DNA of 64,000 nt from an uncultured virus (IMG/VR IMGVR_UViG_3300044632_001415). Its lineage: Duplodnaviria; Heunggongvirae; Uroviricota; Caudoviricetes. The stretch lies in the IMG/VR virus record IMGVR_UViG_3300044632_001415. The stretch is one strand, 5' to 3'. Below are positions 9,651 to 31,588 of the stretch, piece by piece. The notes below the pieces were generated by a model that saw only the letters and a program-made list of their open reading frames with translations, did not search any database and was not told the DNA's origin. Position 1 is the stretch's first letter. Each line of letters begins with the position of its first letter. The translations under genes were made by a program, and so were the position numbers.

Positions 9651-9727
9651 AAAACCCTATATAGGGTGAATTTGAAAAAAAATTTTGAGGGCCAAATTCG
9701 TTTCGGCAAAAAGTTTTAAATCTGGAA

Positions 9728-10015
9728 TTAAATAAAATGTTTAGCTATTGATAAGCTAGCAAGTATAACCCACAGTACATTGAATATAATAATAGTGGGT
9801 AGAGTCTTCTCGGTTGATGTCCAGATTAAAGATAGACTTGATATGATTGCGAATATATATAGCCACCACCACTGGTAGCCGAACAAGAGTCCGGGAAAAA
9901 TAATTGCAATCTTTGTTGCGAATCCCCATGCCTCTACAGCATTTACTCTACTCCAATAGCCCTTAGAGCTCATCGTTTTAAGAGCATCTATAATTTTCTT
10001 AATAAATAATTTCAT
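9728..10015 (-). CDS. small membrane protein
   Basis: about three hydrophobic segments; last gene of the oxygenase/halogenase operon. Confidence 0.6.
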   Translation of the reverse strand: MKLFIKKIIDALKTMSSKGYWSRVNAVEAWGFATKIAIIFPGLLFGYQWWWLYIFAIISSLSLIWTSTEKTLPTIIIFNVLWVILASLSIAKHFI

Positions 10016-10635
10016 ATTATAATTCCATTTTTTTTTACGTGTTCCCATCTTAACCTTACTATCTCTTTTTGATATTTGGGACCCTTAGTAAAGAACCAGT
10101 GATTTGGTTCGGCAAAGTGGAAAAATATCATTTGTACTTCATTTGTAGCTGGTTCTGGAAATTGGTTTCTCCAATGATATTGATCCTCCCCATAATAACA
10201 CAGTGCCTGATTGGGCTCAAGTATATATTCTTTATCTTCAACATAAATTGGCCACTTTTGGATCTGACTTAGGCATACATCCACAGTATAGGTGCAGGCA
10301 TTATCATCTATATGCTTTGGCAGAGCTGCTTTAAATCCTCTGTAGAGTCCCCAAACTGCATACGTGGGCTTGATGTGATCCCCAAACAAAATCTTTGCTC
10401 GATCAATAATATGATCAAAGGATTGCAATAAAGGATTATCAATATTAGAATCTAAAGTACTTACATAGTATCTGCCTAAGAAATCTGTATATTTTAAAAT
10501 ATTTGTTTCTCTAATATTTTTAAACGTATCAATTAGATAAGAAAAATATTCCTCTTCAAATACGTTAGAAATTACTTGGGGATCAGGACGAGAGCAGAGA
10601 GTTCTTCCAGATAATTGATCATAAAATTTCTTCAT
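10012..10635 (-). CDS. 2OG-Fe(II) oxygenase
   Basis: LPKHIDD.AC (HxD), WPIYVE, Y.GE...HWR (distal His), 'FFHF'. Confidence 0.75.
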   Translation of the reverse strand: MKKFYDQLSGRTLCSRPDPQVISNVFEEEYFSYLIDTFKNIRETNILKYTDFLGRYYVSTLDSNIDNPLLQSFDHIIDRAKILFGDHIKPTYAVWGLYRGFKAALPKHIDDNACTYTVDVCLSQIQKWPIYVEDKEYILEPNQALCYYGEDQYHWRNQFPEPATNEVQMIFFHFAEPNHWFFTKGPKYQKEIVRLRWEHVKKNGIII

Positions 10636-11305
10636 TAACTACCTGTTGCATAGGAGTAACATTTATTACTTCTTGTTCTATGTCTTTAGTAATAAAAGTG
10701 CTTATGATCCATTTGTCTTCAGAGAGTGGCACGCACCCCTGATGAGGGTGTGTCCAATATGCAGGAAAAAGGGCTATGGATCCAGCGCGTGCGGGTATCT
10801 TCAGATCGTGCTCTGGAAAGAATGTTTCTCCTCCCACTTCTACTGTATTAAGATAAATAACCGCACCTAACATTCTATTTCTAGCTTTGATAGGTCCTGG
10901 TCCACCATCAATATGTTCTCTATAATATCCATTGTTTTTGATATAGTGCTGCAATCTAAAACCCGAATCAGATAATCCAGGCCATTCCCACAACCATCTA
11001 AAAGATTCTGCGTAATATCCTATTGCTCCAAAAAGCGCATCAACGACAATTTTTTCATATTCAGCCAATGGATTAGTGGGAATATTTAGGGCTTCTAATT
11101 CTCCTTTAGCAAAATTCATATCCATACTAGATTTTATAGTTGGAATTACTCCAGAGAAAACTGGACCAGGAGTAAACAAAATTTCATAATATTTACTTAC
11201 TTCCGTAATAATATTAGAACAAACTTTTTCATCTATAATTGAATCCGCTACCATGATGGCAGAAGGTTTACCTAATGGCCAATCAAATTTTGTTTTGCTA
11301 TTCAT
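10619..11305 (-). CDS. 2OG-Fe(II) oxygenase (prolyl-hydroxylase-like)
   Basis: YREHID, YLN..E.GGETFF, FPAYWTHPHQG, KWI. Confidence 0.9.
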   Translation of the reverse strand: MNSKTKFDWPLGKPSAIMVADSIIDEKVCSNIITEVSKYYEILFTPGPVFSGVIPTIKSSMDMNFAKGELEALNIPTNPLAEYEKIVVDALFGAIGYYAESFRWLWEWPGLSDSGFRLQHYIKNNGYYREHIDGGPGPIKARNRMLGAVIYLNTVEVGGETFFPEHDLKIPARAGSIALFPAYWTHPHQGCVPLSEDKWIISTFITKDIEQEVINVTPMQQVVNEEIL

Positions 11306-11317
11306 TTAATGATCTTC

Positions 11318-11557
11318 CTAATTGCGTGACAATAGTCTTTCATATACATCCAGTATATCTCTTAATCTTGATTCGGCGGGGTCTTTCCAGGAAGAATTTG
11401 TTACTGTCGGCTGCCACGTAAAAGCTCCATTAGTAAACTCTAGCTCTTCTGGATTAATACCGGCTAATATTGCACATGCAAATAGTTCCGACTCCAAGCG
11501 TGTACGCGCAGTTTGTATAGCTAATGCCTTTTGATTCTGAGACAATATAAATTCCAT
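11318..11557 (-). CDS. small helical protein, 'GINPEE' paralogue
   Basis: aligns by eye with 15561..15809; GGAG RBS. Confidence 0.65.
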   Translation of the reverse strand: MEFILSQNQKALAIQTARTRLESELFACAILAGINPEELEFTNGAFTWQPTVTNSSWKDPAESRLRDILDVYERLLSRN

Positions 11558-11567
11558 TAAATTTCTC

Positions 11568-12383
11568 CTAATTCTTAGATTTAAATATTTTACTAAAAAG
11601 AGATTTGTTGTTCACTTGAACTTCTGCATCTGCTTCTCTCTGCATTCTCTTGTACTTACTCTTTTGTCTTTTAGCCATAAAAGCGCCACCAAATCCACGC
11701 CATCTAAGAAGAGTGTACGCAATTTCGTCGCCCCACGTGATTTTAATATCTTTCTCTCTTTTAAAAGGAATAACATGCCAGATTGCTTTACCAGCTTCTA
11801 GCTCAAATGGTTCATCCGTTAAGATATTCATTACCATATGGGCATTGTGATAGTAATCCGTGTTAACTATTGCTGGAAGCATTGTATAATTAGGATTTGG
11901 ATCCCAGAGTGTAGGCAGGAACAGACATGACCATCCTGGTGCAGTTTTTATTAGCCAAGGATTAATTACTTTAATATAGTTTGCTTGGGGTAATTTTCTA
12001 ATTTTACTTACCGGACATTCTCCAGTTTGGTCATAACTAAATCCCTCTATTCCAAAGTCCCCTACTTCATTGGTCAAGTCAAATTTAACTTCCCACATTT
12101 TTCCGTTTATCGATGGTCTAAACATAAGGCTAGCCCAAAGTGGAATAGTAAAACCAGAAGCCAAATAGTCAGATGTACCAGAGCATCTCTTGACACTTCC
12201 TTCATTGCCGCTTAGATTCTTCCACCATTCAGGCCAATTTCCATTATTCTTATATGGGCGACAAGAATCATCCATAAGGAATTTAGATTGAGGAGTAATG
12301 AATACCTCTCCACCTTTTAACTTGGGTATTTCATTAAATATACGAGGACTAACTATTTTTAGTTTTTGCGAGCGCTTCAGCAT
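11568..12383 (-). CDS. hypothetical protein (possibly beta-rich/dUTPase-like fold)
   Basis: P.WWK...VKRC.G..DYL..GF.IPLW...K..NPW.IKT.PGWS.LF...LP.IVNTD...IPFKR. Confidence 0.65.
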   Translation of the reverse strand: MLKRSQKLKIVSPRIFNEIPKLKGGEVFITPQSKFLMDDSCRPYKNNGNWPEWWKNLSGNEGSVKRCSGTSDYLASGFTIPLWASLMFRPSINGKMWEVKFDLTNEVGDFGIEGFSYDQTGECPVSKIRKLPQANYIKVINPWLIKTAPGWSCLFLPTLWDPNPNYTMLPAIVNTDYYHNAHMVMNILTDEPFELEAGKAIWHVIPFKREKDIKITWGDEIAYTLLRWRGFGGAFMAKRQKSKYKRMQREADAEVQVNNKSLFSKIFKSKN

Positions 12384-13824
12384 GATCGACCAATTTCTGT
12401 TTTAAAAGATTTTTTGACATATTTGATAAGTCTTCTCTAATGACTTTACGGGAATTATACGCATCAAGTTCGATAGATGCTACCTCTTTATTTAGAACTC
12501 CTTGACCTTGAGCAACGTGCCAAAGATGTGCTGCGGCAAACAATTCAAATCCGGTGGAAGGAACATCGTGGATTTCAGGAGAATGGACATTCCAAACTTC
12601 TAATAAATGCTGTAAAAGTTCCGGTTTTTCAGCTTCTTGTTGAGCTCTCCACATTTCTGAATCTGATCTATCTGATACATAATGAAGAGATATCATGCAC
12701 AAAATATTTTCCATGACTGAATCCATAATTCGATGATACTCTTTGATGCCATACGTCTTTTCTTTTGAAAACGTTGGCAGGTACGAACATAGTACTCTGA
12801 CTTGTTGAATTGTTGTTGAAATGGAAGTAGCCTCTAGTGGCTCTACAAAAGCTGCTGATAAACCAACTGCTACACAATTATTTTTCCAAGTTGTTTTAAA
12901 ATAACCAGAATTAAAATCTATGACCTTAGCTGGTTTTACTTCAAATCCATGAACTTTTGAAGCTTCTTCTATGGCCTGATCAACCGTACAAAAATCAGAG
13001 GCAAATACATATCCATTACCTCTTCTCATTTGAGTGGGAATTTCCCACATCCATCCATTACTTAAAGCCCTAGCTCTAGTGTAAGGTCTAATTCTTCCTG
13101 ACGGATCTGATTCTGTAGGAAATGCTATAGCTTTATCGCATGGCAAATATTTGCGGTAGGATATAAATGTTTGATCAGAAATTTTACTTAAAATTTCACG
13201 ATTAAATCCTGTGGCATCGACAAAGAAATCTGCTTTTAAATATTTTTTATTATTATTTAAATAAATACTTTCAATGTAACCATCTTCATCTATTTTTAGA
13301 TCTGACACTTCATCATCTATGAATAATATTTTCTTACTTTTTGCAATATTAGTAAGAAATAAATTTAATTTAAATGTATCAAAGTGATACTGATTACTTC
13401 CTAGATGAGTATCATTTCCTAGGTCTACTATTTTATCGTCTACTAAACCTTTCCATGAAAAAGTATTAGTTAACAATAATTCATTTTCTAGAGCATATGC
13501 GTAGCTTCCAAAAAAAGTATTAACGTTTAATCCAGTTCCACCTACACTATGAAAGTAGTCTGGAGTATGTGTCGTCCAATTTTCATAACGTATCCCGTAC
13601 TTATGAGTGATGTCAGCGTGCTTGACCATATCGTCAACTCTAATTCCAACAAGATCCTGAAAGATTCTCCAGTGCTCTGTCGAGCCTTCTCCAACTCCTA
13701 TGATCCCTTTTTTGCTAGAAGAAACTACTGTTACTGTGTAACTTTCAAAAAGAGATTTAATTATAAGCGCAGCAATTAATCCTGCTGTTCCTGAACCAAT
13801 AATAGCAATTTTTTTTTCATTCAT
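12349..13824 (-). CDS. flavin-dependent (tryptophan-halogenase-family) halogenase
   Basis: GSGTAG FAD motif, GVGEGS, catalytic Lys context (THKYGIRYENW), YHFD, FFVDATG, GWMWEIP (WxWxIP), FVEPLEATS. Confidence 0.92.
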   Translation of the reverse strand: MNEKKIAIIGSGTAGLIAALIIKSLFESYTVTVVSSSKKGIIGVGEGSTEHWRIFQDLVGIRVDDMVKHADITHKYGIRYENWTTHTPDYFHSVGGTGLNVNTFFGSYAYALENELLLTNTFSWKGLVDDKIVDLGNDTHLGSNQYHFDTFKLNLFLTNIAKSKKILFIDDEVSDLKIDEDGYIESIYLNNNKKYLKADFFVDATGFNREILSKISDQTFISYRKYLPCDKAIAFPTESDPSGRIRPYTRARALSNGWMWEIPTQMRRGNGYVFASDFCTVDQAIEEASKVHGFEVKPAKVIDFNSGYFKTTWKNNCVAVGLSAAFVEPLEATSISTTIQQVRVLCSYLPTFSKEKTYGIKEYHRIMDSVMENILCMISLHYVSDRSDSEMWRAQQEAEKPELLQHLLEVWNVHSPEIHDVPSTGFELFAAAHLWHVAQGQGVLNKEVASIELDAYNSRKVIREDLSNMSKNLLKQKLVDHAEALAKTKNS

Positions 13825-14543
13825 TTTTTAATAACCAATGTATATCCAAGTGCAAAAGGTAGGTGGAAAGTTATTACATCTTCTCTCTGACAGAGCATTT
13901 GATGGGGGTGGTAATAGGGGTGGGCTTCCTGATTAACATAGAGACCGCCTAGATCATTTGTAGCCATCAACAATAATGAGCCACCACTAGACAAGTGATC
14001 GACCATACCATTTAGCATTTGATCGTCGTGACAAAGGTTTTCTAAATACGCCACAATAAGATTGTAGTCATTGTCAAAGTTTCCATCTTGGATATCCTGC
14101 ATGCCTATAGTGTGCTCATCAGCAATATTGATATTCCAAAGGCGCTCAACATAGTCTAGAAGTGGTAAATTCATTACGTGAATTTCTGAAACATTATTCT
14201 CTTTGAAAAGAGGATAATTTATGTCAAGACCTCTATAACCAAAGGGGGCCAACAATATTTTTGAAGGCTTCTGTAAGGCTACGAGCATTTCAACCATCAG
14301 GAAGTGAATTGCAGCTACTTCATGTGAAGGGCTAGTTGGTGGAGATAGGAATTCTAAATAATTTAGAGTAGTTATAAATCCAATCGCCTGACGACTTCTA
14401 TCTACGCCAGCTTCTAATTCTTCTGATAATGAACGTTGACAAAAATCTGCTATTTCTTCAGCGTTATAATTAGCTCCGGGACTATTGCTTAGCTGCCTAC
14501 TTAGCAGGCTAATATCATATAAGCTAGGATTCTTCTTAAGCAT
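13821..14543 (-). CDS. class I methyltransferase-fold protein with degenerate SAM motif
   Basis: 'LVALQKPSKILL', 'DYNLIV', 'HLSSGGSLLL'; canonical ExGxGxG absent. Confidence 0.5.
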   Translation of the reverse strand: MLKKNPSLYDISLLSRQLSNSPGANYNAEEIADFCQRSLSEELEAGVDRSRQAIGFITTLNYLEFLSPPTSPSHEVAAIHFLMVEMLVALQKPSKILLAPFGYRGLDINYPLFKENNVSEIHVMNLPLLDYVERLWNINIADEHTIGMQDIQDGNFDNDYNLIVAYLENLCHDDQMLNGMVDHLSSGGSLLLMATNDLGGLYVNQEAHPYYHPHQMLCQREDVITFHLPFALGYTLVIKK

Positions 14544-14805
14544 TTTCTATTCTCCATTTTAAAAGTGTGTAATAGTACCAGAATCTACGGATGTTCATCT
14601 GCGACCGACGAAGTGAGGCATATCTTTCGCATTCTGCTGGAGATTCTTCATCGTAAGAAGAAGAACCATATACGACGGCACACTGTTCTAATAATTGCAC
14701 TAAAGTATAGGAATCAATATTATCACAATCTAAACCAATCGACTCTATCGTGGCAAACAAATTGTTTTGGATATATAAAAAATCTTTTTCAATATTATAG
14801 GTCAT
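14536..14805 (-). CDS. small helical protein, distant 'GINPEE'-like paralogue
   Basis: 'LFATIESIGLDCDNID' resembles 'LFACAILAGINPEELE'. Confidence 0.5.
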   Translation of the reverse strand: MTYNIEKDFLYIQNNLFATIESIGLDCDNIDSYTLVQLLEQCAVVYGSSSYDEESPAECERYASLRRSQMNIRRFWYYYTLLKWRIENA

Positions 14806-14971
14806 ATTTTTCCTTTTCATCTACATCAAAGAGCACTGGTACATCGACATATATGTCGCATGTAGTTTCAGCCTGCCCAACTCTCTTATATCTTCCATCA
14901 GTAGTATCAAAATAAACTTCGTTGATACCTTCATCTACATTTGAATCTTGCGGAGGCTGCTCTGGACTCAC
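14795..14971 (-). CDS. small acidic protein (58 aa, not in ORF track)
   Basis: GTG start overlaps upstream stop (GTGA); MSPEQPPQDSNVDEG...EKEKYDL*; fills the operon gap. Confidence 0.55.
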   Translation of the reverse strand: MSPEQPPQDSNVDEGINEVYFDTTDGRYKRVGQAETTCDIYVDVPVLFDVDEKEKYDL

Positions 14972-15558
14972 CTAAACCACGTCACTAAAGAATATTTAAT
15001 TGTTTGATCATTGGAACCTACAGGTTCTGCTATATGTATATATGGAAAATTAGAAGGAAAAAGAATGACACTTCCAGCTTTAGGTGTAATTGATGTATCA
15101 AATTTTGGAAAAGTTAAATTTCCACCTGAGTAGCCATCATTTAAAAATGCAACTAAGCTTAGTGTTCTTGAATTGTCTCGCCAATGATCATGGTGTGCGT
15201 GATATGATGCGCCGCCGCCATATTTCAGTACACGATATCCCTCGTCTGCTTCTAGATCTAGTTCAAAGGTATTTCTATAATCCCAAACATATGGATCTAT
15301 TGACTCCCATATTCTTTTCCATTCTTGCGCAAGTGGCAAAACTCTTTCTACTGAAATGTCTTCACTACCAATAGGGCCTAGTTCGCAACTCATTGATGTT
15401 CTTATCGGAGCAACAACTCCTGACCCAACAGTTGAGCGTTCCCAATGAAGGTATCCCCATGCCTGACTACACTCTTCTTCAAGAAGATGAATAAAATTTC
15501 CTGGATCGAAAACATTATCATACTGCACTATGCAGGGGGCATGTTCTGTCATTTTCAT
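14968..15558 (-). CDS. 2OG-Fe(II) oxygenase (prolyl-hydroxylase-like)
   Basis: YHAHHD, FLND.YSGG.L.F, LFPSNFPYIH, KYSLVTW. Confidence 0.9.
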   Translation of the reverse strand: MKMTEHAPCIVQYDNVFDPGNFIHLLEEECSQAWGYLHWERSTVGSGVVAPIRTSMSCELGPIGSEDISVERVLPLAQEWKRIWESIDPYVWDYRNTFELDLEADEGYRVLKYGGGASYHAHHDHWRDNSRTLSLVAFLNDGYSGGNLTFPKFDTSITPKAGSVILFPSNFPYIHIAEPVGSNDQTIKYSLVTWFR

Positions 15559-15560
15559 TT

Positions 15561-15809
15561 TTATGCTGCTACCTGTTCACGGATAGCAATAACCGTTTTG
15601 CACAAATCTAATAGGCGTTGCACTTCAGATACGTAGCCCTGGAATGGAGCGTCAATTTCAGATTGGGGATCAAAAGTTAATATGTCAATTTCTTCTGGAT
15701 TTATACCAGATGCGACAAGCATGCCGTACATTTGTTCCTTCAATCCATCAATTCTAGAATCTATAGCTTGAAGCTTTCTTTCATTACTTAAAGAGTTAAA
15801 AAAATTCAT
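15561..15809 (-). CDS. small helical protein, 'GINPEE' paralogue
   Basis: aligns by eye with 11318..11557; AGGA RBS. Confidence 0.65.
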   Translation of the reverse strand: MNFFNSLSNERKLQAIDSRIDGLKEQMYGMLVASGINPEEIDILTFDPQSEIDAPFQGYVSEVQRLLDLCKTVIAIREQVAA

Positions 15810-15834
15810 TTTTCTTCCTTTTTTGTTTGTTATT

Positions 15835-15863
15835 ATTATAGTGTATAATTATTGTTTTTTCAA
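15835..15863 (-). promoter_or_regulatory. sigma70-type promoter for the oxygenase/halogenase cassette
   Basis: minus strand TTGAAA-N17-TATAAT (15863-15858; 15840-15835). Confidence 0.65.
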
Positions 15864-15869
15864 GTTGAT

Positions 15870-17618
15870 TTAGATATCAATTACTTTGCTATAATTTGAA
15901 TGGCCTATTTGACTTGCAACATTTCCAGCGTTTCTAGTAACAACAACTATTCCACCAGTTGAGCCTGTAGCTCCTGTTGCCCCAGGATTAGCTGTACCAG
16001 CTGCACCAACTGCACCTCCAGCTCCTCCGCTGTAGTTAACAGTAGGAGCACTATGACTAGGGGCGGCAGATCTGTTGCTAGTTACCGCTCCTGTTGTGAC
16101 ATTAAGGGTAGCTGCGGTGTGCGGGTGTGTTCCGGAGTTGTGGCCAGATGGGTGTGGTGTTCCTGCGCCAGGATTAGGTCCAGTTGATCCCGCAGGGTGG
16201 TGATGAGTAGTCGGGTGTGTGCCAGCATTGTGACTTGCATTATAAACTGTTGCGTGATGGCTTGGCTTACCAGAATGTGGGGCGTTAGCTGGATGATGAT
16301 GATTTCCAGAATGATGACCAGATGGATGGAAAGTTGAGTTGTGACCAGCAGGATGAAAAGTGCCATTATGATGACTTCTCACGGTATGTGGTCCACCTGC
16401 TGGGTGTGCTGCATGCGGAGTGCCAGAACCATGATGATGAGATCCATGTCCCGCATTGTGGTTTTTTCCAGAAACTGTTGCATTGTGGTTGGTAAAATTT
16501 CTAGGACCATTTGCTGGATGAGATCCAGAAGTGTTTCCAGCAGGATGATGATGATATCCGTGACCTGCATTATGTCCTGAAGGGTGTGGATTGCCGGGGT
16601 TGTGCCCAGAAGGGTGTGGGTTGGCACTATGGGGACTGATTACTGCAATTGAGTTAGCAGGGTGGTGATAAAATCCATCATTATGCCCAGAAGGATGTGG
16701 TGTACCAGCGCCAGGGTTTGGTCCAGTTGAACCAGCGGGGTGGTGATGAGAAGTTGGATGAGTGCCGGAGTTATGACCAGCTGGATGTGGTGTACCAGCG
16801 CCGGGGTTTGGTCCAGTTGATCCAGCAGGGTGATGAAAGGTCCCCGACGTATGATATCCAGTTATGTTAGGTGCAGGGTTTCCTGCAGGGCCAGCAGCGC
16901 CTGGCGTAGATGGAGTTCCCGCCGTTCCAGCTACTCCATAGCTTACTAAAGTCCCACTGCCTGCAATTGTCTTGGCAAAAATAATAACTAATCCACCACC
17001 AAGACCACCAGCTCCACCAGTTCCCGCAGTTGCTGGGTTGCCAGCGGTTCCTGCATTTCCTGCACCGCCAGCCTGCCCTACATTGGCTCCAGGAAAGTTT
17101 CCAGCACCACCAGCAAATGGTCCAGTGGGAAGGGTGGTTGTACCATTGGAACCAGCAGTACCTAATGAGCCTCCAGCGATCTTTGTGACAACTCCTGCGC
17201 CGGTAATAAAAAATCCAGATACCGCGTCATCTAAATCATAAAGATCTGTTACAGATATTGGATCTGTACTTGTACCCCAAGCTTTAGATGGATTGAGGGA
17301 AGTTTGTCTTCCGGCAATTGTTCCGCTTCCATCTGCTACAGAGTGAGTAACTGCGGCGGGCATACCAACTGTTCCGTTATTTGTGAAAGTTCCATTGACA
17401 AAAACGCGGAATCCATTTGTAAATAATGTAACACCACTATTAACCGTAAGATTAGTACAGTATATGTCTTTTACTAATTTATAAACATTTGAAGTTGGAG
17501 CTAATGAAATTACTGTAGCTGTGCCGTCAAATGTAGCTGCGCCATCAGTACCTTCGCCAAAGATGGCGTCTCCACCTTCTCTTTGGACAATGGGTTTATT
17601 TACTCTTCTAATTGCCAT
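15870..17618 (-). CDS. Gly-rich fibre/virion protein with His/Pro-rich insert
   Basis: N-terminal domain shared with 17620..18390; Gly-rich segments flank ~250 aa with about 54 His by hand count. Confidence 0.75.
   Translation of the reverse strand: MAIRRVNKPIVQREGGDAIFGEGTDGAATFDGTATVISLAPTSNVYKLVKDIYCTNLTVNSGVTLFTNGFRVFVNGTFTNNGTVGMPAAVTHSVADGSGTIAGRQTSLNPSKAWGTSTDPISVTDLYDLDDAVSGFFITGAGVVTKIAGGSLGTAGSNGTTTLPTGPFAGGAGNFPGANVGQAGGAGNAGTAGNPATAGTGGAGGLGGGLVIIFAKTIAGSGTLVSYGVAGTAGTPSTPGAAGPAGNPAPNITGYHTSGTFHHPAGSTGPNPGAGTPHPAGHNSGTHPTSHHHPAGSTGPNPGAGTPHPSGHNDGFYHHPANSIAVISPHSANPHPSGHNPGNPHPSGHNAGHGYHHHPAGNTSGSHPANGPRNFTNHNATVSGKNHNAGHGSHHHGSGTPHAAHPAGGPHTVRSHHNGTFHPAGHNSTFHPSGHHSGNHHHPANAPHSGKPSHHATVYNASHNAGTHPTTHHHPAGSTGPNPGAGTPHPSGHNSGTHPHTAATLNVTTGAVTSNRSAAPSHSAPTVNYSGGAGGAVGAAGTANPGATGATGSTGGIVVVTRNAGNVASQIGHSNYSKVIDI
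16110..16860 (-). repeat. His-Pro-Gly-Asn protein-level repeats
   Basis: HHPAGSTGPNPGAGTPHP[AS]GHN x3 plus many HPxGHN and HHH motifs. Confidence 0.9.
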
Positions 17619-17619
17619 T

Positions 17620-18390
17620 TCATACTACCTGCGAATAAATAACAGTACCCGCGCTACAGCTAGTTCCACCAGTGACATCGGTTGATACGCCAGAAGTCAG
17701 AACTCCAGCGGAAGAAATAATAATCACCACTCCACCGCCACCGCCGTTTGCACCAGCAGTTCCTGGTGCCTTGATGCTTGCCGTACCGCTAGAAAGACCG
17801 ATGTATCTTGCTGCAAGAATAACTACTCCACCGCCCACTCCAACAGTGCCGCCAGCGCCACCACGTAAGGGAGTTACAGTAGTCGATGTTCCCGTAATGG
17901 AATACCCTTTAATTGCTTGGAAAGGCTGTTTATAGTAGTCGGTCCCGCCTGTTCCTGCAGTTGGTGCGTCTGCAGTCTGTGTTTCGCTTGAGCCACCAAG
18001 ACTATGAGTAACCGGAGTTGCGGTAGCGCCACCCTGCTGTATTGAGCCAGTGGTTGAGAACCCTGTGGTATAGCCAATGATTGAATCATTACCAAGCGTT
18101 AAAACATTTTGAACAAAAATTCTATACCCTGCGGGATTTAATCTAACGTTGTCTGCAATTATTAGATTATAAAAGAATAAATCTCTTGTTGCTGTATAGA
18201 CGGAAGACAATGGTGCCATGCTCAGAACTGTCGCTGATCCATCCAAGGTAGCAGAGCCGTCTGCGCCTGAACCATAAACTGGGTCTGGTGCATCAAGGAA
18301 ACCAGTGAGGTTGGAGTTCGCTTTTGACGTTGTTGATGGTCCAGAGGCGACGCTCAGACCACCTCCATTCGTAAAAATGAACTTTCCCAT
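17620..18390 (-). CDS. Gly-rich virion protein (paralogue of 15870..17618 without His insert)
   Basis: shared 'G.G.DG.AT.DG.ATV.S.AP.S.VY....D....NL......L...G.R.FV' and GGGG-VV.I motifs. Confidence 0.7.
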   Translation of the reverse strand: MGKFIFTNGGGLSVASGPSTTSKANSNLTGFLDAPDPVYGSGADGSATLDGSATVLSMAPLSSVYTATRDLFFYNLIIADNVRLNPAGYRIFVQNVLTLGNDSIIGYTTGFSTTGSIQQGGATATPVTHSLGGSSETQTADAPTAGTGGTDYYKQPFQAIKGYSITGTSTTVTPLRGGAGGTVGVGGGVVILAARYIGLSSGTASIKAPGTAGANGGGGGVVIIISSAGVLTSGVSTDVTGGTSCSAGTVIYSQVV

Positions 18391-18391
18391 T

Positions 18392-18760
18392 TTAGTATTC
18401 CTCGTATCCATTCAAAATATAGTTGACCGTTACTGCGCTTGCTAGTCCTCGTATTTTATCTGAATATGTATCTCCAGCAGTATTATTATTATTTGTTAAT
18501 ACCATTGAAGTTGACAATGTCACTGTTTCGTTAGCTGCAAGTGTTAGCGAGTTAATAAAAATGTGCGAACTTGCTACAGTTACTCCGTATGGCTTTAGAT
18601 ATAGCGTTACTGTTTGTGCGGAAGCAGACGTGTTGCATAAAATAATTTCTTTAATTACAACCTTCGTTACGTATCCAACATTATATGGGACGGTGTATAT
18701 ATCTCCTGCAGACGTAGCAAATGCTGCTGGTCCGACAAGTCTTTTCTGTGTTAAGGGCAT
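18392..18760 (-). CDS. putative virion structural protein
   Basis: beta-rich 'IYTVP...VIKEIILCNT...TV.L...FI...L.ANET'; coupled to fibre gene. Confidence 0.6.
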   Translation of the reverse strand: MPLTQKRLVGPAAFATSAGDIYTVPYNVGYVTKVVIKEIILCNTSASAQTVTLYLKPYGVTVASSHIFINSLTLAANETVTLSTSMVLTNNNNTAGDTYSDKIRGLASAVTVNYILNGYEEY

Positions 18761-21700
18761 TACATAACCTCCATTATAAATTTCATCATATTGTCTCTCA
18801 CATTGTTTACAGTTGCTACACTCACGGAACTCACCGACAATGTTGTGCCGTCAAATGTAAGGTTTGCGCTACCAGCAGCATCGTTAGAACCGTCTTTATA
18901 TACGACCTGATTTGCAGAACCAGCAACTGGGCCCGTTGCTCCTTGTGTTCCTTGCGGACCTGTAGCGCCTTGAGAACCTGTGGCGCCTTGTGGTCCAGTG
19001 CTTCCCTGTGGGCCAATATCTCCTTGTGGGCCAGTAGAACCTTGGGGACCTGTAGCTCCCTGTGGTCCTGTCGAACCCTGGGATCCTGTTTCACCCTGAG
19101 GACCAATGGAGCCTTGTGGTCCTTGCGGTCCAGTAGAACCTTGAGGACCTGTGTTTCCTTGGGAGCCAGCAGCGCCTTGTGAGCCAGTAGCGCCTTGAGA
19201 GCCTATATCCCCTTGTGGTCCTTGTGGTCCGGTTGCACCTTGGGCACCTGTAGCACCTTGTGGCCCAACATCTCCTTGTGCGCCAGTTGCACCTTGGGGA
19301 CCTGTGGCTCCTTGAGGACCAGTGGCTCCTTGAGGACCAACAGATCCCTGAGGGCCCTGAGGTCCAGTGTCACCCTGAGGTCCTATTGGACCTTGAGCGC
19401 CTGTTGATCCTTGTGGTCCAGTATCTCCTTGGGCACCTGTGGCTCCCTGAGCTCCAGTGGCTCCCTGAGCTCCAGTTGCTCCCTGCGAACCAGTTGCACC
19501 CTGCGAACCAGTTGCACCTTGTGCGCCTGTATTGCCAGTATCACCTTTGTCGCCAGTACGAACAAATGTAATAATTACATCTTGACCATTTGCCCATGTT
19601 GGAGAAGAGCCAGTCAGATAAGTAACTGGAACTTTATAATATGAGGATACATAAGTGTTTGCTCCACTTATTGCGTAATAAGCAAAGACCGCTGAATTCC
19701 CAAATTCTTCTACCCTAAAGTGTCCCTTAATTGAGGAAGTTGAATCATCAATTGTTTCAAGATATGCAGATACATCTACAGAGTTACTGTCAACTGGGTC
19801 TATATATAGGAAAGTTGCAGTCGCAAAAGTATTGTCAAACTTTAAGTTTGCTGTACCGGGATCACTGTCTGCTGTACTTGTTAAATAATTATATGAAAAA
19901 GTTGCTCCACCAAAAGAGCCCGTTGCTCCCTGTGCCCCAGTTGCTCCCTGAGATCCTGTGGCCCCTTGAACTCCCTGTGGGCCAACAGATCCCTGAGCTC
20001 CCACATCTCCCTGTGGCCCAGTTGCACCTTGGGGACCAGTTGCGCCTTGTGGGCCAGTGGCGCCTTGAGGGCCAGTAGCGCCTTGTGCGCCTTGCGAGCC
20101 AACTGCTCCCTGAGGTCCGACGTCACCCTGTGGACCAACTGAACCCTGAGGTCCCGTATCCCCTTGGGCGCCTGTTAAACCCTGAGGTCCTGTTGCGCCT
20201 TGTGATCCTGTTGCACCTTGTGATCCTGTTGCTCCTTGAGCTCCTGTCGCTCCCTGAGCACCGGTTGCACCTTGAGAACCGACGTCCCCCTGTGGGCCTT
20301 GCGGACCCGTTGATCCTTGTGCTCCAGTTGCACCTTGAGAACCTGTAGCTCCTTGCGGACCAACGTCACCCTGTGGGCCATCTCCACCAACTGGTCCTTC
20401 GCTACCTTGAGCTCCAGTAGCACCCTGGGGTCCCGTTGCACCTTCAGGGCCAGCTGAACCCTGTGGTCCTTGAGATCCAGTAGCCCCTGTTGCCCCTTGG
20501 GGACCAGTGGAACCTTGTGGGCCTATGTCTCCTTGAGCGCCAGTGGAACCTGTTGCCCCCTGAGGGCCGGTAGCGCCTTGTGCTCCTGCGTCCCCTTGTG
20601 GTCCACTCGCACCTTGTGCTCCCTGTGCTCCCTGTGTGCCAACGTCTCCTTGAGGCCCCTGTGGTCCGGTTGCACCTTGGGCACCGGTAGCGCCTTGGGA
20701 TCCGACATCTCCTTGGGGGCCAGTTGCACCCTGGGCTCCTGTGGCTCCCTGGGCTCCTGTGGCTCCCTGGGCTCCTGTGGCTCCCTGGGCTCCAACGGAT
20801 CCCTGCGGACCTTGAGGGCCAGTATCGCCTTGTGGTCCCACTGACCCCTGAGGGCCTGTTGATCCTTGGGCTCCTGTTGCGCCTTGAGAACCTTGGGGGC
20901 CAGTAGCTCCTTGAGGACCTGTTTCACCTTGTGCTCCAGTTGAACCTTGGGGCCCAATATCACCCTGAGGGCCTTGGGGGCCAATTGGGCTTGTGGAATC
21001 AAGAGAGCCATCACCCTTTACAAATTGAGTAGAAGTTCCACCTTGAGTTACAAACTTATCTGCGTTGATGTACTGGAAGTAGTTAATAGAATTGGTCGTG
21101 CCGCCAGTGCCTGATGAAGCAGCCAAGGTCGAGGAAGGTTTGTCGTAAACACAGTTGAGAATTGAATAAAAACCGTTTAGCTCAACTGGAGCAACGCTGC
21201 TTAGATTTGATGTTAAAAACTGACAGTTGGATAAAGTTACAACGCTTGATGAAGAAGATGTAACGGCGTTAGTCACAGCAGCAGCAACAATCGAATCAAT
21301 AAGAGATAAAGTTCCAGCAGTTAACACTGGGGCAACAGTCACTGCACTCTTAACAATTACATTCGCACTAGCGTTATTGACTGTTATAAAGTTGGGGTTA
21401 CCTCCAAAGATTAAAACCAAACCAGCGCCAGTGATACTTGTAGTACCAAAATCACACACACGAGCAACCGTATAATCGGCGTTACTGCTCTTTGTGAAAG
21501 TGCCAGAAACCTCACAGTTAAGTATGTTTACATTTCCCTGAGCAGCGGGCGTGCTGACCGTCAGGTTTGTCATTTTTATGCCCGAGATGGTGCAGCCAGT
21601 GTTTGTGCTTACCGTCCCTGAAATAACTATGTTCCCACCAATAAGACCAGGGCCAGTTATGGTTGTGTACTGAGTAGTTATTGATGGGCTTTCCGTGTAT

Positions 21701-22422
21701 GTCCCTGGGTGAACAATAACTGTTTTACGCTGTGAGGTCACTAAAGTAAGTGCTTTAGTAATAGAAGCAACGGGGGTTAGTAAATCACCATTACCAGTAG
21801 TATCATCTCCATCTACTTGGCTAACATGGATTTCATAGTCGTAGCCAGTAAAAGTGATTCCAGAAGCACCAGTAGCACCTTGGCTGCCCGTGGCTCCTTG
21901 AGAACCCGTAGCTCCCTGGGAGCCTGTGGCTCCTTGAGGGCCTTGTGGACCTTGTGCGCCAGCAAGAAGACTGGTACCAACACCATCGCCTCCAGTAGTT
22001 ATGTCAAGATAAAAACCTCTTGCATTTCCGCCTTGCTCAAAAAAGCGAAGTCTGTTTTGCCAAACGTCAATAGTGACCCCACCAGTAAGGGTGGTGTTGG
22101 TAACTGCTTTCTTTAGGAAAATTTCACCACCCTCATCACCAGATGAGTTATTGGAGATGAGGTTGCCTCCAGCAGCTATATTGCCAGAAACTGAGACGGC
22201 GGATGGTAAGCTTACAACAAAAGAGCCAGAGGTTTCAGTTACAGTAATTTGATCTGTAGTGCCAGTAATTCCAGTAATTAATTTAGCGCCAACAATAGTA
22301 TTAGATGCGTTCTTATAGAATAACTTGCCATCTGCATAGTTTAATGCCAGTTCCCCATGAGTCATAGAAGCAGGTACAGACGTAGTTGTACCTGAATTCT
22401 TAACTAAAATAGTATTAGCCAT
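18760..22422 (-). CDS. collagen-like tail/head fibre protein
   Basis: N-terminal 'ILVKNSG...[20 protein letters not shown]' anchor; three Gly-X-Y blocks separated by globular domains. Confidence 0.88.
18925..19550 (-). repeat. collagen Gly-X-Y block (C-terminal)
   Basis: [12 protein letters not shown] triplets; boundaries approximate. Confidence 0.9.
19915..20985 (-). repeat. collagen Gly-X-Y block (central)
   Basis: long uninterrupted Gly-X-Y run; boundaries approximate. Confidence 0.9.
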
Positions 22423-22476: not shown

Positions 22477-23274
22477 TTATTCTGTTGTGCCAGAACAAGA
22501 TTCCAAATCTTCAAAACGTTTAGTAATCAAATCATCGTATTTAGCTGCGATTTCTGCAACGTTGTGTTGAATCAAGGCGTTGCGTGTACGCTGTGCAGTG
22601 GAAGGACCAATGTGTTGCTTGTAAATCATCTTGGGAATATAATTAAATTTAGTAATTAAAAAAGTTCTAACAACTAGATCAAAATCATCTGCTACAGTAA
22701 AACGAGGATCATGTCCATTCAACTGCCTATAGACATCTGCTCGCCATGCACGAACGTGATTAGGCGCTGAAACGATATGTCTAATAGTAGTAGGATTAAT
22801 CTCTGGAGCACCCATTGTCCACACTTGATGTTCTTCATCCCAATAGTCGGAACCATAGCCAAAAGCCCAACCATCAGGGTATCTTCCTGATTGGCCATCT
22901 GGTAAAATTTCACACCAATCAGAATAAACAAAACCAACTTCAGGATCAGTAAATGCGTCAGCAGTTAACTGTAGTGCGTCGGGCATTAATTCATCATCGT
23001 GATCTAACTCTACTAGAATGTCACCCTCGGCTGCCATCATGCACTGACGTTTAACTCTGCCAATGCTTCCAGAATGAACATGTGATTTATGCGCCATCAA
23101 TCTAAATCTTTCATCAGACGCTAAACCATAAATTTGATTCCATGTATTATTATTAGTAGAATCGTCCCAAACAACCCATTCCCAATCAGTATAAGTTTGA
23201 GATTTAAGACTTGCCCAAGTTCTAGCTAGAATACTTGGATCAGTATTATAAGTTGGTGTACAAATAGAAATCAT
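22477..23274 (-). CDS. glycosyltransferase family 2
   Basis: ISICTPTYN, EWVVWDDS, ELDHDD (DxD), VYSD, ADDFDL. Confidence 0.9.
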   Translation of the reverse strand: MISICTPTYNTDPSILARTWASLKSQTYTDWEWVVWDDSTNNNTWNQIYGLASDERFRLMAHKSHVHSGSIGRVKRQCMMAAEGDILVELDHDDELMPDALQLTADAFTDPEVGFVYSDWCEILPDGQSGRYPDGWAFGYGSDYWDEEHQVWTMGAPEINPTTIRHIVSAPNHVRAWRADVYRQLNGHDPRFTVADDFDLVVRTFLITKFNYIPKMIYKQHIGPSTAQRTRNALIQHNVAEIAAKYDDLITKRFEDLESCSGTTE

Positions 23275-23398
23275 TTAAGCCTCAGTATCAATAAAATATA
23301 TGTATATATTATCACATTAACTTGCAATGTGCCAATAATCCTTGCTCTTATTTAAGGACTTTAGTCTTACTATTCTATCGAGGATGGGAGTCTTTATC

Positions 23399-27376: not shown

Positions 27377-28117
27377 CTATTTATAGTTATTTTGTATGTA
27401 AACAGGATAAGTTTCATCTATCTCATAATACTTTAGGGGAAATCTATCAAATGGATCTATTCCCTTTTCAATCCTATGCTTAATAGTTTCTAAAGACTTG
27501 TATTCATTTTCATTATATTCTGTATGCGCAAATGATTCTATCTTATATATAATATTATTAATATCTGAAAAATAAGAAAAGTGCCAACCAGCGTTGGGTA
27601 TTCTTGGCAAAAGTGCTTCTCTCATTTTTTGTGGACTATTTTTTTTTAACTCCGAGTATTTCAACGCAACTGGTCTAGCAGTTTGGTTGCAGTGATCTGG
27701 AACCTGCCAATTAAAATTCCAAAAATATTGCCTATTATCTAAAGCTACAGGTTTTTTTATATTTTTTAATTCCTGTATAACAGATGATTTAATAATTTCA
27801 TCCACATCAGATATTAAAATTATGTCATTCTTTTTAGCAAAAGATAAACCATCCATGATGGCGTTTCGTTGAAAGTATTCTCTCTCCCAAGAAGTCATTT
27901 CATCTTTTGGAAAATCAACCTTTATTTTAATTATTTTATCCAAAAATGGATTTATCCATTCACCTATATCTTCTAAATAGAAGGGCTTGCTATTGCCAGT
28001 AAAGGTTTTAGATGCCTCTACAATTACGAATGAATCAACACAAGAGTATAATTCGTGCAAGCGGATCTTTAGCATTTGTTCTTCATTAAAATACGTAAAG
28101 CAATCAAATATTTTCAT
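27377..28117 (-). CDS. glycosyltransferase family 17 (MGAT3-like GlcNAc transferase)
   Basis: DCF.YFNE..L.IRL.EL...VD.FVIVEA..TFTG..KP, E.FQRN, SDVDEI, AGWHFSY, KIESFAH.E. Confidence 0.88.
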   Translation of the reverse strand: MKIFDCFTYFNEEQMLKIRLHELYSCVDSFVIVEASKTFTGNSKPFYLEDIGEWINPFLDKIIKIKVDFPKDEMTSWEREYFQRNAIMDGLSFAKKNDIILISDVDEIIKSSVIQELKNIKKPVALDNRQYFWNFNWQVPDHCNQTARPVALKYSELKKNSPQKMREALLPRIPNAGWHFSYFSDINNIIYKIESFAHTEYNENEYKSLETIKHRIEKGIDPFDRFPLKYYEIDETYPVYIQNNYK

Positions 28118-28562
28118 ACACTAATACATTCTCATTTTTAAACATTGAATATCTTTTAATTTCAGTTTCCACTTGTGCGTTAATAGTTAGATATTTTCCA
28201 AGATCATTTGCCCAAACACCTGGATTTACCACCATTGCAAAACCGCCAGGTTTTAAAAAGCTTTTGATCTGACGGGCTACCATATCTGTGTCGTCGTTGA
28301 AAAGTTCTGGATCATAATTAAATGAAATAAATAAATCACAAATTGATTGACCAAAATATATACCGTTTATACCGGCTTCCCAGTACTTACACTCGTCGTT
28401 AGAGAGATATTTTCCTCTTTCAGTATGCATCATAAAAGCGCCAATACCATGCTTAGGCGTGTGTAAAACATCTAACAATTCTTTACTACGGCCATAAAGA
28501 GTCGTAAATGTTGTTTGTGGAAACACATCTCTAATTATATGTGCTACGTAGTCCCAATCCAT
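28104..28562 (-). CDS. methyltransferase-fold protein (degenerate)
   Basis: 'CDLFIS...IKSFLKPGGFAMV'; probable leaderless start. Confidence 0.5.
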   Translation of the reverse strand: MDWDYVAHIIRDVFPQTTFTTLYGRSKELLDVLHTPKHGIGAFMMHTERGKYLSNDECKYWEAGINGIYFGQSICDLFISFNYDPELFNDDTDMVARQIKSFLKPGGFAMVVNPGVWANDLGKYLTINAQVETEIKRYSMFKNENVLVYENI

Positions 28563-28570
28563 GATATGTA

Positions 28571-29110
28571 TTATAACACAGGCTTACGGGCGTCGACTTT
28601 AAGCCAGCCCCATTCATCTCCACGCTTAACATCTAATATTTCAAAACCCATTTTTTCAAAGTCGTCTTGCAACATTCTATGCGTTAAGCCCACAAAGTGA
28701 AAGTCAAAAGGATTAAGTTGTTCCGCAAAAAAGATTTGCTGCATTCTTCTGTCTCCATCGAGGGAGTCCATAGAGATTAATTGATTACAGGCTAGGATAA
28801 AGTCTGGGACTTCTATTCTGATCATGCCACCTGGCTTAACAATTCTACACCACTCAGCTAATACTGATTGATATTCTTTCCAAGGAAAATGTTCTAGACA
28901 TTCAGAGTTATAAACTATGTCAGCGTAATTATCTGGAAGATTGATTTTTCGTGCATCGCAAACTACGTCTACTGGGACAAAAGTTTTATTTACATGATCA
29001 TATAATGGTGTTGGGTCTATATCTATGTGCATCCAGTCTGAACCTAGGTATGTTCTAGTACCAATTACAACTTTTATGCCATTACCTTGTGGTATTGTTT
29101 CTAATCTCAT
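28571..29110 (-). CDS. SAM-dependent methyltransferase
   Basis: DA....LPDN.AD.VY.S.CLEHF...EW.RIVKPGG.IRIEVPD. Confidence 0.85.
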   Translation of the reverse strand: MRLETIPQGNGIKVVIGTRTYLGSDWMHIDIDPTPLYDHVNKTFVPVDVVCDARKINLPDNYADIVYNSECLEHFPWKEYQSVLAEWCRIVKPGGMIRIEVPDFILACNQLISMDSLDGDRRMQQIFFAEQLNPFDFHFVGLTHRMLQDDFEKMGFEILDVKRGDEWGWLKVDARKPVL

Positions 29111-29971
29111 TTAAATTATTCTTCCTCGATAAAGATTTTGCCAACGTGGGACCTTGATAATATCTACTTCGCGCCCCAAAGCTGCTATATAAATTGTTTC
29201 TGGACTCTCATTTAACCCTTTAAGCTCAGGTTGCAACTGATACCATTCCTCCATGTAATGGGAAGTCCAATCTTCGAACCTAGTTACGTTAGGGCTATGG
29301 TAGGTTACATGCGGGCCTACAAAATATTTATTCCATTTATTCACCCAGTTAACTACGCCTGCATTAATTCTTTCCTGTGCATCAGGATTTCTAGTGCTTG
29401 TGGCATCGTGAGAGACTACTACTGATGGATCAGCTACTATCTTCCAGCCACCTAATCTTATTCTAGTCTGGAAATCAACTTCTTCTTGATGCCCGATCTC
29501 TGTATCAAATCCACCGATTTCTTTGTATCGTTGACGATTTAAAATCCAACAAAATCCAACACCCCATAATATTTCCATATATCTTGTACGCTGTATAGGG
29601 TAAGCTCCACCATTAGGAAAAGCCATAGCGACTTCATGATTAGATTCTAGATAACTAGCCAATTTCTCATCCCAACCACGAGTAATAGCATACGCATCGT
29701 TGTCAAGATAGCCGACATTGTTAGTCTCTGCCCACTCCAGTATTTGATTGACTGCTCCGACATATCCAGTATTGTGATCTAAAAATCTTGGAATGATTCT
29801 TGAATCTTCATTAGCGTGTCTTTCAATAACTTCTCTGACACCTGGGTCAGTCGATGCGTTATCGACAACTAGAAAGCGCCAATCGGAAGTAGAGTTCTCT
29901 CTCATGTTAATAAGCATCATATTTAACTTCTGAGGATTATTATAACTAGCAGTGCCCATATCTATTCTCAT
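29111..29971 (-). CDS. glycosyltransferase family 2
   Basis: VVDNASTD, N.GY..A.N, YLDND, IGGFD, EEVDF..R. Confidence 0.88.
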   Translation of the reverse strand: MRIDMGTASYNNPQKLNMMLINMRENSTSDWRFLVVDNASTDPGVREVIERHANEDSRIIPRFLDHNTGYVGAVNQILEWAETNNVGYLDNDAYAITRGWDEKLASYLESNHEVAMAFPNGGAYPIQRTRYMEILWGVGFCWILNRQRYKEIGGFDTEIGHQEEVDFQTRIRLGGWKIVADPSVVVSHDATSTRNPDAQERINAGVVNWVNKWNKYFVGPHVTYHSPNVTRFEDWTSHYMEEWYQLQPELKGLNESPETIYIAALGREVDIIKVPRWQNLYRGRII

Positions 29972-31562: not shown

Positions 31563-31588
31563 ACTTCCTTCTTTGTAGTAATATTTAG

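Follow-up and report, generated by a model that had tools for sequence, protein, structure and literature searches.

A phage fibre gene with a histidine-rich insert is linked to a conserved halogenase and oxygenase cassette: a candidate fibre-tailoring module

What do the halogenases and oxygenases of phages act on? Known for about two decades, the flavin halogenases of viruses and the large dioxygenase arrays of cyanophages still lack a natural substrate, and they have been read as stray genes (PMC1079782). The question is raised anew by a locus in a 64,000-nucleotide stretch of DNA (the window) from an uncultured virus of the Caudoviricetes, IMG/VR record IMGVR_UViG_3300044632_001415. Here the gene for a glycine-rich, fibre-like protein, fib582, is followed by a cassette of 11 genes, sm82 to mem106, that includes genes for three oxygenases or oxygenase-like proteins, a halogenase, and a protein with a methyltransferase-like fold. 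An earlier note, made from the letters of the window, had proposed that the cassette chemically modifies the histidine-rich repeats of the fibre. The association of fibre and enzymes proves to be real and conserved, and the interpretation is plausible and directly testable. Tailoring of the fibre is the best reading of the block, held tentatively and somewhat short of an even chance.

The 12 open reading frames (ORFs) all read along the minus strand between 17618 and 9728, and the ORF listing of the window bears out the inventory, order, strand, and tight 11-gene coupling that the earlier note described (Table 1). Adjacent cassette genes overlap by at most 37 nt or are spaced by at most 12 nt; a gap of 60 nt separates the stop codon of the fibre gene from the first small gene, sm82. 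The virus encodes a DnaE-type polymerase, has a G+C content of about 34%, and has relatives among contigs of 180–197 kb. It is not a T4-like cyanophage. Neither a search for near-identical DNA copies of the block nor tblastn searches with fib582 and with the methyltransferase-like protein, mt240, found a match among 50,697 phage records. The record nearest to the window represents the same virus but stops within the cassette.

Co-occurrence of fibre and enzymes was surveyed in 2.9 million viral contigs, searched from two independent starting points: unk271, a cassette protein with a predicted dUTPase fold, and the N-terminal domain of the fibre. The former gave 79 loci, and the latter was represented by the best 80 of 305 relatives. 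All ORFs of these loci were scanned with hidden Markov models (HMMs) of the cassette families, and the pooled, de-duplicated set holds 81 distinct complete fibre homologs. For 76 of the 81, a halogenase, a dUTPase-fold protein, and at least one oxygenase are encoded in the same locus, within 20 kb. Of the remaining five, four run into a contig end within 2 kb; the fifth (L051) has the halogenase, the dUTPase-fold protein, and a methyltransferase-like gene, with no oxygenase match. Searches that began with the dUTPase-fold protein found the small protein p122, the insert-less fibre paralog fib263, and the His-rich fibre beside a halogenase and an oxygenase in all sufficiently flanked loci except one (L043), and searches that began with the fibre N-domain gave the same result. 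The pairing of fibre and enzymes is far from chance. Indeed, the co-occurrence of cassette and His-rich inserts that the earlier note had proposed to examine is strongly positive: linkage holds for 76 of 81 fibres, and 71 of 81 contain at least 15% His in their best 100 residues.

This adjacency survives six gene arrangements. The fibre lies upstream of the enzymes in 69 of the 76 loci, where the first enzyme is oxy196 (59 loci), oxy228 (five), the halogenase (three), or mt240 (two); it lies downstream in six loci and on the opposite strand in one. The core of the module consists of p122, fib263, the His-rich fibre, one oxygenase of the prolyl-4-hydroxylase (P4H) type, the halogenase, and the dUTPase-fold protein. 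Among the 76 loci, fib263 occurs in 76, p122 in 64, oxy228 in 49, mem106 in 47, and oxy207 in 28; mt240 (23), sm94 (15), a family-2 glycosyltransferase (GT2; 10), and sm58 (eight) are less frequent, and the version in the window is among the fullest. Between the window and its nearest relative, protein identity is 45–85% in the block that runs from the collagen-like fibre to oxy207 versus 96–99% for flanking genes. Thus, the enzymes diversify together with the fibres. The cassette family is essentially viral, since 185,579 species genomes yielded three loci only, all on contigs of metagenome-assembled genomes with the same phage arrangement. The phage clade that carries the module is widespread in lake-type samples.

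The feature that distinguishes fib582 is its low-complexity insert of 255 residues, with 21% His, 16% Gly, 15% Pro, 10% Asn, and 10% Ser, set between Gly-rich N- and C-terminal flanks with 0–2% His. A repeat unit starting HHPAGSTGPNPGAGTPHP is present in three copies and HP[AS]GHN in six. At the DNA level the repeats appear as three 97-nt copies that are 64–80% identical to the reference copy, and so do not constitute a recent slippage array. The whole protein has no match in Pfam or PHROG, and its N-domain gave nothing significant in Pfam, PHROG, or PDB sequence searches; it is from its place in the tail-fibre module that we infer fib582 to be a fibre component. The insert is low-complexity in all 81 fibre relatives, with a His content in the best 100 residues of 8–45% (median 23%; 27% in the window fibre). 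Where His is scarcer, the inserts contain Pro/Asn/Gly repeats, among them GDPP, GNPPHT, and GGNVNPV. Across the inserts Asn-Pro is enriched 2.6-fold, and GHNP, HNPG, GNPG, and HPAG each occur in 21–28 of the 81 relatives versus about four in shuffled sequences; the recurring motifs are Asn-Pro-Gly and His-Pro-x-Gly turns. In fib263, by contrast, the best 100 residues have a median of 1% and a maximum of 4% His (77 distinct copies), so that the insert is specific to the fib582-type paralog. The loop is probably disordered, and in the proposed reading it would be the hypervariable, exposed part of the fibre.

Two observations on the fibre may be added. A 1042-residue homolog (L083, 2878–6006) carries a carbohydrate-binding module, CBM_4_9 (6.4e-7), fused before the usual N-domain, an arrangement that fits an adhesin role. 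At 16559–16650 of the window, an RNA-library contig from a relative skips 90 nt (30 codons) within the His-rich insert, which suggests that repeat-unit length varies among co-occurring strains.

The oxygenases and the halogenase appear to retain their catalytic residues, as judged from conservation across 29–90 relatives per family. Two oxygenases match PF13640: oxy196 at 2.5e-13 (51.2 bits against a cut-off of 27) and oxy228 at 2.1e-9 (38.7 bits against 27). Their nearest solved relatives are the P4Hs of Bacillus anthracis (3itq and 5hv0 at 6.5e-7 for oxy196, 3itq at 9e-7 for oxy228). Residues H122, D124, H175, and K188 of oxy196 are conserved in at least 90% of 90 sequences; the corresponding sets H131, D133, H188, and K198 of oxy228 and H108, D110, H154, and R156 of oxy207 are conserved in at least 90% of relatives. 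Because the Asp of the iron triad is retained in all three, these proteins are of the hydroxylase type rather than halogenases of the SyrB2 type. The third, oxy207, has no Pfam match; it matches phrog_2954 at 5.7e-14, a family whose PHROG label, "ferrochelatase", is judged to be mislabelled, and its family HMM matches gp54 of cyanophage Syn9 at 4e-9. The three oxygenases thus come from at least two families, and a Pfam search found no JmjC or cupin domain in any cassette protein. Since oxy196 and oxy228 are nearest to collagen-type P4Hs and the N-P-G and H-P-x-G turns recur, proline is a better-supported candidate target than histidine. The proposal that the fibre repeats are tailored is partly supported, by the linkage and by the conserved catalytic motifs.

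The halogenase, hal491, matches PF04820 over residues 5–449 of 491, with 330.7 bits (cut-off 21) and an E value of 2e-98. Conservation in at least 90% of 80 sequences extends to G10, G12, and G15 of the N-terminal GxGxxG motif for FAD; to W258 and E261-I262-P263 of the W-x-W-x-I-P motif, in a region that reads GWMWEIP; and to K75, E328, and E331, which by motif context and comparison with the PrnA and RebH motifs are presumably the catalytic Lys and Glu residues. By these motifs hal491 is a tryptophan-type flavin halogenase. It is nearer to the solved bacterial Trp 5/6-halogenases (3e-56) than to the viral enzyme VirX1 (PDB 6qgm; 2e-35), with which it shares its Pfam family, and its 491 residues compare with chains of 511–551. 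The cyanophage and pelagiphage halogenases, of the same Pfam family, are 26–36% identical to hal491. To our knowledge there is no known natural substrate for VirX1 or the cyanophage flavin halogenases.

The product of the gene next to the halogenase, unk271, which the earlier note had listed as an unknown protein, belongs to phrog_7084; weak DUF6065 matches were found in six of 11 members of its family, and Pfam gave no dUTPase match. A 36-sequence profile nevertheless matches 22 of 22 dUTPases in the PDB, with which, of the five dUTPase motifs, only the motif III/IV region aligns (profile positions 168–206), and Cys67 is invariant in the 36 sequences. The structure predicted with AlphaFold2 (pLDDT, the predicted local distance difference test, 88.2) has a dUTPase-like barrel with N- and C-terminal extensions; its best Foldseek E value is 2.4e-4, the template modelling (TM) score to the target reaches 0.72, and among the matches listed all are dUTPases or dCTP deaminases. 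By profile and model together unk271 is a dUTPase-fold protein, and it is the obligate partner of the halogenase. A protein of this type had already been noted in the Syn9 array by Iyer et al. 2010 (PMC2938197).

For mt240 the methyltransferase fold claimed earlier is supported by predicted structure alone. A model built from a 20-sequence alignment (pLDDT 85.4) gave 430 Foldseek matches at E ≤ 0.001, headed by 3tr6 at 9e-9 and followed by SafC and norbelladine O-methyltransferase (OMT); among the matches listed nearly all are cation-dependent OMTs. The predicted fold is thus class I, Rossmann-like, of the catechol/caffeoyl-CoA OMT type, with E values of 9e-9 to 4e-7 and TM scores of about 0.5–0.6 for SafC (5log), 3tr6, and 3cbg. 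Unlike those enzymes, mt240 has no Pfam match at threshold and no recognisable glycine-rich loop for S-adenosylmethionine: the alignment contains no GxGxG after the first strand. A profile search gave weak methyltransferase matches only, and these belong to the same OMT family; in Pfam, Methyltransf_3, _12, _23, and _24 were each matched by one of 20 family members at E values of 0.013–0.063. A protein-atlas lead from mt240 to methyltransferases scored below 0.9, and none of its 34 matches in a collection of 5.8 billion proteins has a Pfam domain or an informative name.

The small partner proteins foreseen in the earlier note are present, but one of them is tied to the fibre gene rather than to an enzyme. 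The products of sm82 and sm79 are paralogs of one small helical family, here named SMX, with the architecture helix, G-x-D-P-x-x-x-D, loop, helix, in which both helical ends are conserved and the middle is variable. In 64 of the 76 loci the gene directly 3′ of the fibre is an SMX gene, even where the fibre has moved across the enzymes or to the other strand, so that this copy belongs to the fibre and not to an oxygenase. No SMX gene was detected by HMM scan in 12 of the 76 full loci. From these features the SMX proteins are read as putative non-enzymatic docking or chaperone partners. A conserved Cys and a Trp-rich C-terminus mark sm94; neither it nor sm58 has relatives outside the phage group of the window. 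As for mem106, its designation as a membrane protein goes back to hydrophobic stretches seen in the sequence.

How might these components act together? In the proposed scheme the products of sm82 to mem106 would act on the fib582 loop in the cytoplasm while the fibre assembles or beforehand. The P4H-type oxygenases would hydroxylate prolines in the N-P-G and H-P-x-G turns, and the third oxygenase could add further hydroxyls. The halogenase, supplied with reduced flavin by a host reductase, would halogenate an electron-rich ring (Tyr, Trp, or possibly His). Where it is present, the catechol-OMT-fold protein would cap hydroxyls, and the GT2 in or beside the cassette may glycosylate them. The SMX proteins, one of them tied to the fibre gene, would dock or chaperone without enzymatic activity; the dUTPase-fold protein enters the scheme as an obligate partner to which no mechanism is assigned. 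This reading is favoured because the linkage to one fibre paralog is nearly perfect and resists rearrangement, the oxygenases are of the protein-hydroxylase type, Pro-turn motifs recur, fibre and enzymes diverge fast together, and Pfam and PHROG searches found no enzyme for a small-molecule scaffold. A more specific outcome, in which hydroxyl and halogen groups, joined in some lineages by methyl or sugar groups, turn an exposed receptor-binding loop into a metal-binding, chemically hardened, or retuned adhesin tip, is possible but doubtful.

Were fibre tailoring to be confirmed, fib582 would give the first example of a virion protein that carries halogen, and the viral flavin halogenases, including those of Syn9-type arrays, would have a named class of natural substrate. 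Protein hydroxylation and halogenation would join the short list of virion modifications, and phages would be seen to have a new way to diversify or harden their receptor-binding tips. The linkage to one fibre paralog makes the question of the halogenase substrate directly testable, with the loop as a concrete, if unproven, candidate.

The closest known system is found in cyanophage Syn9. There Iyer, Abhiman, de Souza, and Aravind 2010 (PMC2938197) described a neighbourhood in which 2-oxoglutarate (2OG) dioxygenases in tandem accompany tryptophan halogenases and a dUTPase-fold protein that has a conserved Cys. Both loci share the order halogenase, dUTPase-fold protein, 2OG dioxygenases, and unk271, oxy228, and oxy207 have homologs in gp43 (2e-17), gp50 (4.5e-13), and gp54 (HMM match given above), respectively. 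The enzyme core of the window thus belongs to the Syn9-type neighbourhood, minus its JmjC member, the JmjC/MINA-type gp49, which no window cassette HMM matches. The earlier remark on related enzymes beside the fibre genes of cyanophages holds for Syn9, where the array (halogenases gp41/42, gp43, and the dioxygenases) directly follows fibre genes that include the Gly-rich gp36, gp38, and gp39. The differences are also considerable. Syn9 has ten dioxygenases and two halogenases compared with three and one in the window; its fibre-side proteins contain at most 10% His per 100 residues versus 27%, gp38 having a short H/N/P/G segment; and family HMMs found no SMX, mt240, sm94, or mem106 homolog in the Syn9 locus. 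Literature searches, DUF6065 included, turned up no paper that links a His-rich fibre to a halogenase/oxygenase cassette. The enzyme core is a variant of a known neighbourhood, and the fibre link is the new part. Within the Syn9 locus (L096, 10185–11363), gp39 consists of a duplicated gp38-like Gly-rich segment, an odd hydrophobic join, and a Trp/Arg/Cys-rich tail, and looks like a frameshifted or recombined duplicate.

Other comparisons bear on single components. Like oxy196 and oxy228, the B. anthracis P4Hs belong to PF13640, have the HxD...H and Lys residues, and have a repetitive, Pro-containing structural protein nearby; the similarity is weak (E about 1e-6 over 60–80 residues), and the candidate motifs in the His-rich loop are N-P-G and H-P-x-G as opposed to the G-P-P triplets of collagen-type P4Hs. 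Collagen-type hydroxylases also include the enzyme of Chlorella virus PBCV-1 and the collagen hydroxylase/glycosyltransferase of mimivirus. That phage enzymes decorate virion proteins, as a GT2 in or beside the cassette might, has a precedent in mycobacteriophages, for which Freeman et al. 2023, as cited in PMC12619734, demonstrated by mass spectrometry glycans on the C-termini of capsid and tail-tube proteins; the window, in contrast, would involve hydroxylation or halogenation of a fibre loop. In the haloarchaeal myovirus Hardygib1 (L026, 4854–7837), a homolog of the dUTPase-fold protein lies between ribonucleotide reductase and a "glycine-rich adhesin"; the locus contains no halogenase or oxygenase.

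Several observations weigh against fibre tailoring. The case that fib582 would be modified is built from genes and their linkage. All the loci are likely to share descent within one broad viral lineage, in which case part of the synteny could be inherited; moreover, accessory genes commonly settle downstream of fibre genes. With no Trp and only four Tyr, the window insert offers few rings to a Trp-type halogenase; we know of no member of the flavin-halogenase family that halogenates histidine, and ten of the 81 fibres have modest His (8–14% in the best 100 residues) and still keep the halogenase. P-SSM2 and pelagiphage HTVC008M encode a halogenase and 2OG oxygenases, yet within 8 kb of these there is no ORF rich in His or Gly. 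The dUTPase-fold homolog of S-RIM4 adjoins ribonucleotide reductase genes, and the motif-III-like T-D-Y retained in the dUTPase-fold protein hints at a nucleotide ligand. Finally, in L043 (5043–13350) the dUTPase-fold protein is accompanied by three cytochrome P450 genes, a short-chain dehydrogenase/reductase (SDR), and a dCMP-deaminase-like gene, with no halogenase, 2OG oxygenase, or fibre within 8–10 kb. This partner can thus serve a tailoring pathway away from any fibre.

These points invite other explanations. It is possible that the cassette builds or tailors a halogenated, hydroxylated metabolite derived from an amino acid, and that its place beside the fibre is a permissive site inherited in one lineage. 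Secondary-metabolite synthesis is the reading given to Syn9-type arrays in PMC2938197, and a 2021 survey (PMC7824862) read a related 10-gene halogenase/2OG cluster of cyanophages as serving metabolite synthesis or decoration of the capsule. The coupling to P450s and an SDR in L043 would fit such a pathway, as would the activity of the nearest solved relatives of hal491 on free tryptophan and the closeness of mt240 to small-molecule catechol OMTs such as SafC; a promoter-like site before the cassette would give it separate control, so that its timing could differ from that of the fibre gene. However, Pfam and PHROG searches found no peptide synthetase, carrier protein, amino-acid-activating enzyme, or exporter in the cassette, the oxygenases typed by Pfam are of the protein-prolyl hydroxylase type, and the linkage to one fibre paralog, seen for 76 of 81 fibres and through six arrangements, and the near-confinement of the family to viruses speak against a metabolic role. 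A small-molecule pathway therefore seems unlikely. Modification of some other protein, such as the collagen-like fibre, fib263, p122, or host proteins or surface structures, seems still less probable. The P4H-type enzymes are nearest to collagen-repeat hydroxylases, a 1220-residue collagen-like fibre is encoded 1.1 kb upstream, and a GT2 and a further glycosylation/methylation block lie nearby; oxy196 also matches the solved structure 4iw3 (E 0.0013), labelled "Putative uncharacterized protein", which we take to be a bacterial prolyl hydroxylase with a cellular protein as its substrate. Against this, a collagen-like ORF is present in only 31 of the 76 full loci, so that the collagen fibre is not an obligate partner and was rejected as an obligate substrate; the His-rich paralog is present in all, L043 being the sole well-flanked unk271 locus that lacks it. 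Moreover, Pro in the collagen-like fibre stands mostly in the G-P-Q position and not in X-Pro-Gly.

The earlier note had likened the locus to that of a ribosomally synthesized and post-translationally modified peptide (RiPP). The comparison does not hold: the candidate substrate is a structural-type protein of 582 residues, the small proteins have no leader/core pattern, and a Pfam search found no RiPP recognition element, protease, or exporter domain in the cassette. A version in which the SMX or other small proteins are the ribosomal-peptide substrates or products, with the fibre as bystander, draws on the position of each SMX paralog before a P4H-type oxygenase in the window, on a nearly invariant SMX Pro and a conserved F-T-W-Q/T-P in the sm79 branch, and on the faster evolution of SMX relative to the enzymes. 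Yet the helices at both ends are conserved, G-x-D-P-x-x-x-D resembles a helix cap, in most loci one SMX copy comes after the fibre gene and not after an enzyme, and in 12 loci no SMX gene was detected; this version was rejected as the principal explanation and is improbable. The least probable of all is modification of nucleotides or DNA, in which the dUTPase-fold protein would bind a pyrimidine nucleotide and the halogenase and oxygenases would modify the base. The fold itself, the retained T-D-Y, and homologs beside ribonucleotide reductase (S-RIM4, Hardygib1) or dCMP deaminase (L043) are consistent with such a role. The oxygenases, however, are of the P4H type and not of the TET/JBP or AlkB type, the cassette lies in the fibre module about 20 kb from the nucleotide-metabolism genes at 38–60 kb, and the Hardygib1 gene is also about 900 bp from the Gly-rich adhesin, which gives a weak match to the fibre HMM (3.9e-6). 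The strict pairing with one fibre paralog would be left unexplained.

Table 1. Positions of the fibre gene, the cassette, and neighbouring features in the window
Feature	Position	Strand	Description	Basis
fib582	15870..17618	-	582 aa; Gly-rich, adhesin/fibre-like; candidate substrate	ORF, composition, relatives
Insert of fib582	16119..16883	-	low-complexity insert, residues 246–500	composition and repeats
Promoter-like site	15835..15863	-	sigma-70-like promoter match	consensus match only
sm82	15561..15809	-	82 aa; small helical SMX-family protein, directly after the fib582 gene	family alignment
oxy196	14968..15558	-	196 aa; 2OG-Fe(II) oxygenase, prolyl-4-hydroxylase type	PF13640
sm58	14795..14971	-	58 aa; variable accessory, no known family	ORF; without Pfam or PHROG match
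sm94	14536..14820	-	94 aa; variable accessory adjoining mt240, no known family	alignment
mt240	13821..14543	-	240 aa; cation-dependent O-methyltransferase fold	predicted structure
hal491	12349..13824	-	491 aa; flavin-dependent halogenase, tryptophan-halogenase family	PF04820
unk271	11568..12383	-	271 aa; dUTPase-fold protein with invariant Cys67	phrog_7084, profile, predicted structure
sm79	11318..11557	-	79 aa; second SMX-family protein, paralog of sm82	family alignment
oxy228	10619..11305	-	228 aa; second P4H-type 2OG-Fe(II) oxygenase	PF13640
oxy207	10012..10635	-	207 aa; third oxygenase-like protein, Syn9 gp54 type	phrog_2954, family HMM, triad
mem106	9728..10048	-	106 aa; small hydrophobic protein, last cassette gene	hydrophobic stretches in sequence
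Terminator-like hairpin	9654..9667	-	hairpin and T run, 3′ of the last cassette gene	consensus match only
fib263	17620..18411	-	263 aa; insert-less paralog of fibre N- and C-terminal parts	present in 76/76 loci
p122	18392..18760	-	122 aa; small beta-rich protein preceding both fibre paralogs	phrog_20100
Collagen-like tail fibre	18760..22422	-	1220 aa; possible second P4H substrate	PF01391 2.7e-88; PHROG tail-fibre families
p265	22477..23274	-	265 aa; family-2 glycosyltransferase (GT2)	PF00535 1.7e-17

The cassette probably has its own promoter and terminator. The gap after the fibre stop codon holds the best sigma-70-like match of the region, TTGAAA-17-TATAAT (11 of 12 positions), and the TATAAT is kept in six of seven aligned relatives. 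Contig pieces of 151–464 nt from two freshwater/lake metatranscriptome runs, 90–100% alike, cover the fibre genes, sm82, oxy196, the halogenase, and oxy228/oxy207; they give a weak hint of habitat, since contigs from RNA libraries cannot show transcription, strand, or transcript ends.

Upstream of the module, the GT2 differs in position between the window, where it lies beyond the collagen-like fibre, and relatives such as L015–L021, where a p265-type gene directly follows mem106; thus the block has been rearranged around it. A further block on the minus strand at 27377–31655, a few kb from the fibre module, encodes a GT17, a methyltransferase, a GT2, a second methyltransferase, and an RmlD-like reductase/epimerase, and as a sugar-decoration block could serve glycosylation of the virion, of DNA, or of the host surface. 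Between these, on the plus strand at 23342–26224, lies the gene for a 960-residue protein with an acidic Thr/Glu/Pro-rich region and repeated helices of the LSDEA/ISDEAF type. It has no significant family match and is conserved beside the fibre module in relatives; as a marker for cassette-less relatives it was rejected on account of its acidic low-complexity sequence.

Farther along the window, a sigma-factor-like protein is encoded at 40378–41256 (phrog_351, 4e-10), and the DnaE-type polymerase III alpha subunit at 43678–47010, 11 kb from a separate gene for the exonuclease subunit at 31686–32444. An HNH/homing-endonuclease-like gene at 51456–52103 lies directly downstream of the gene for a DnaB-like helicase.

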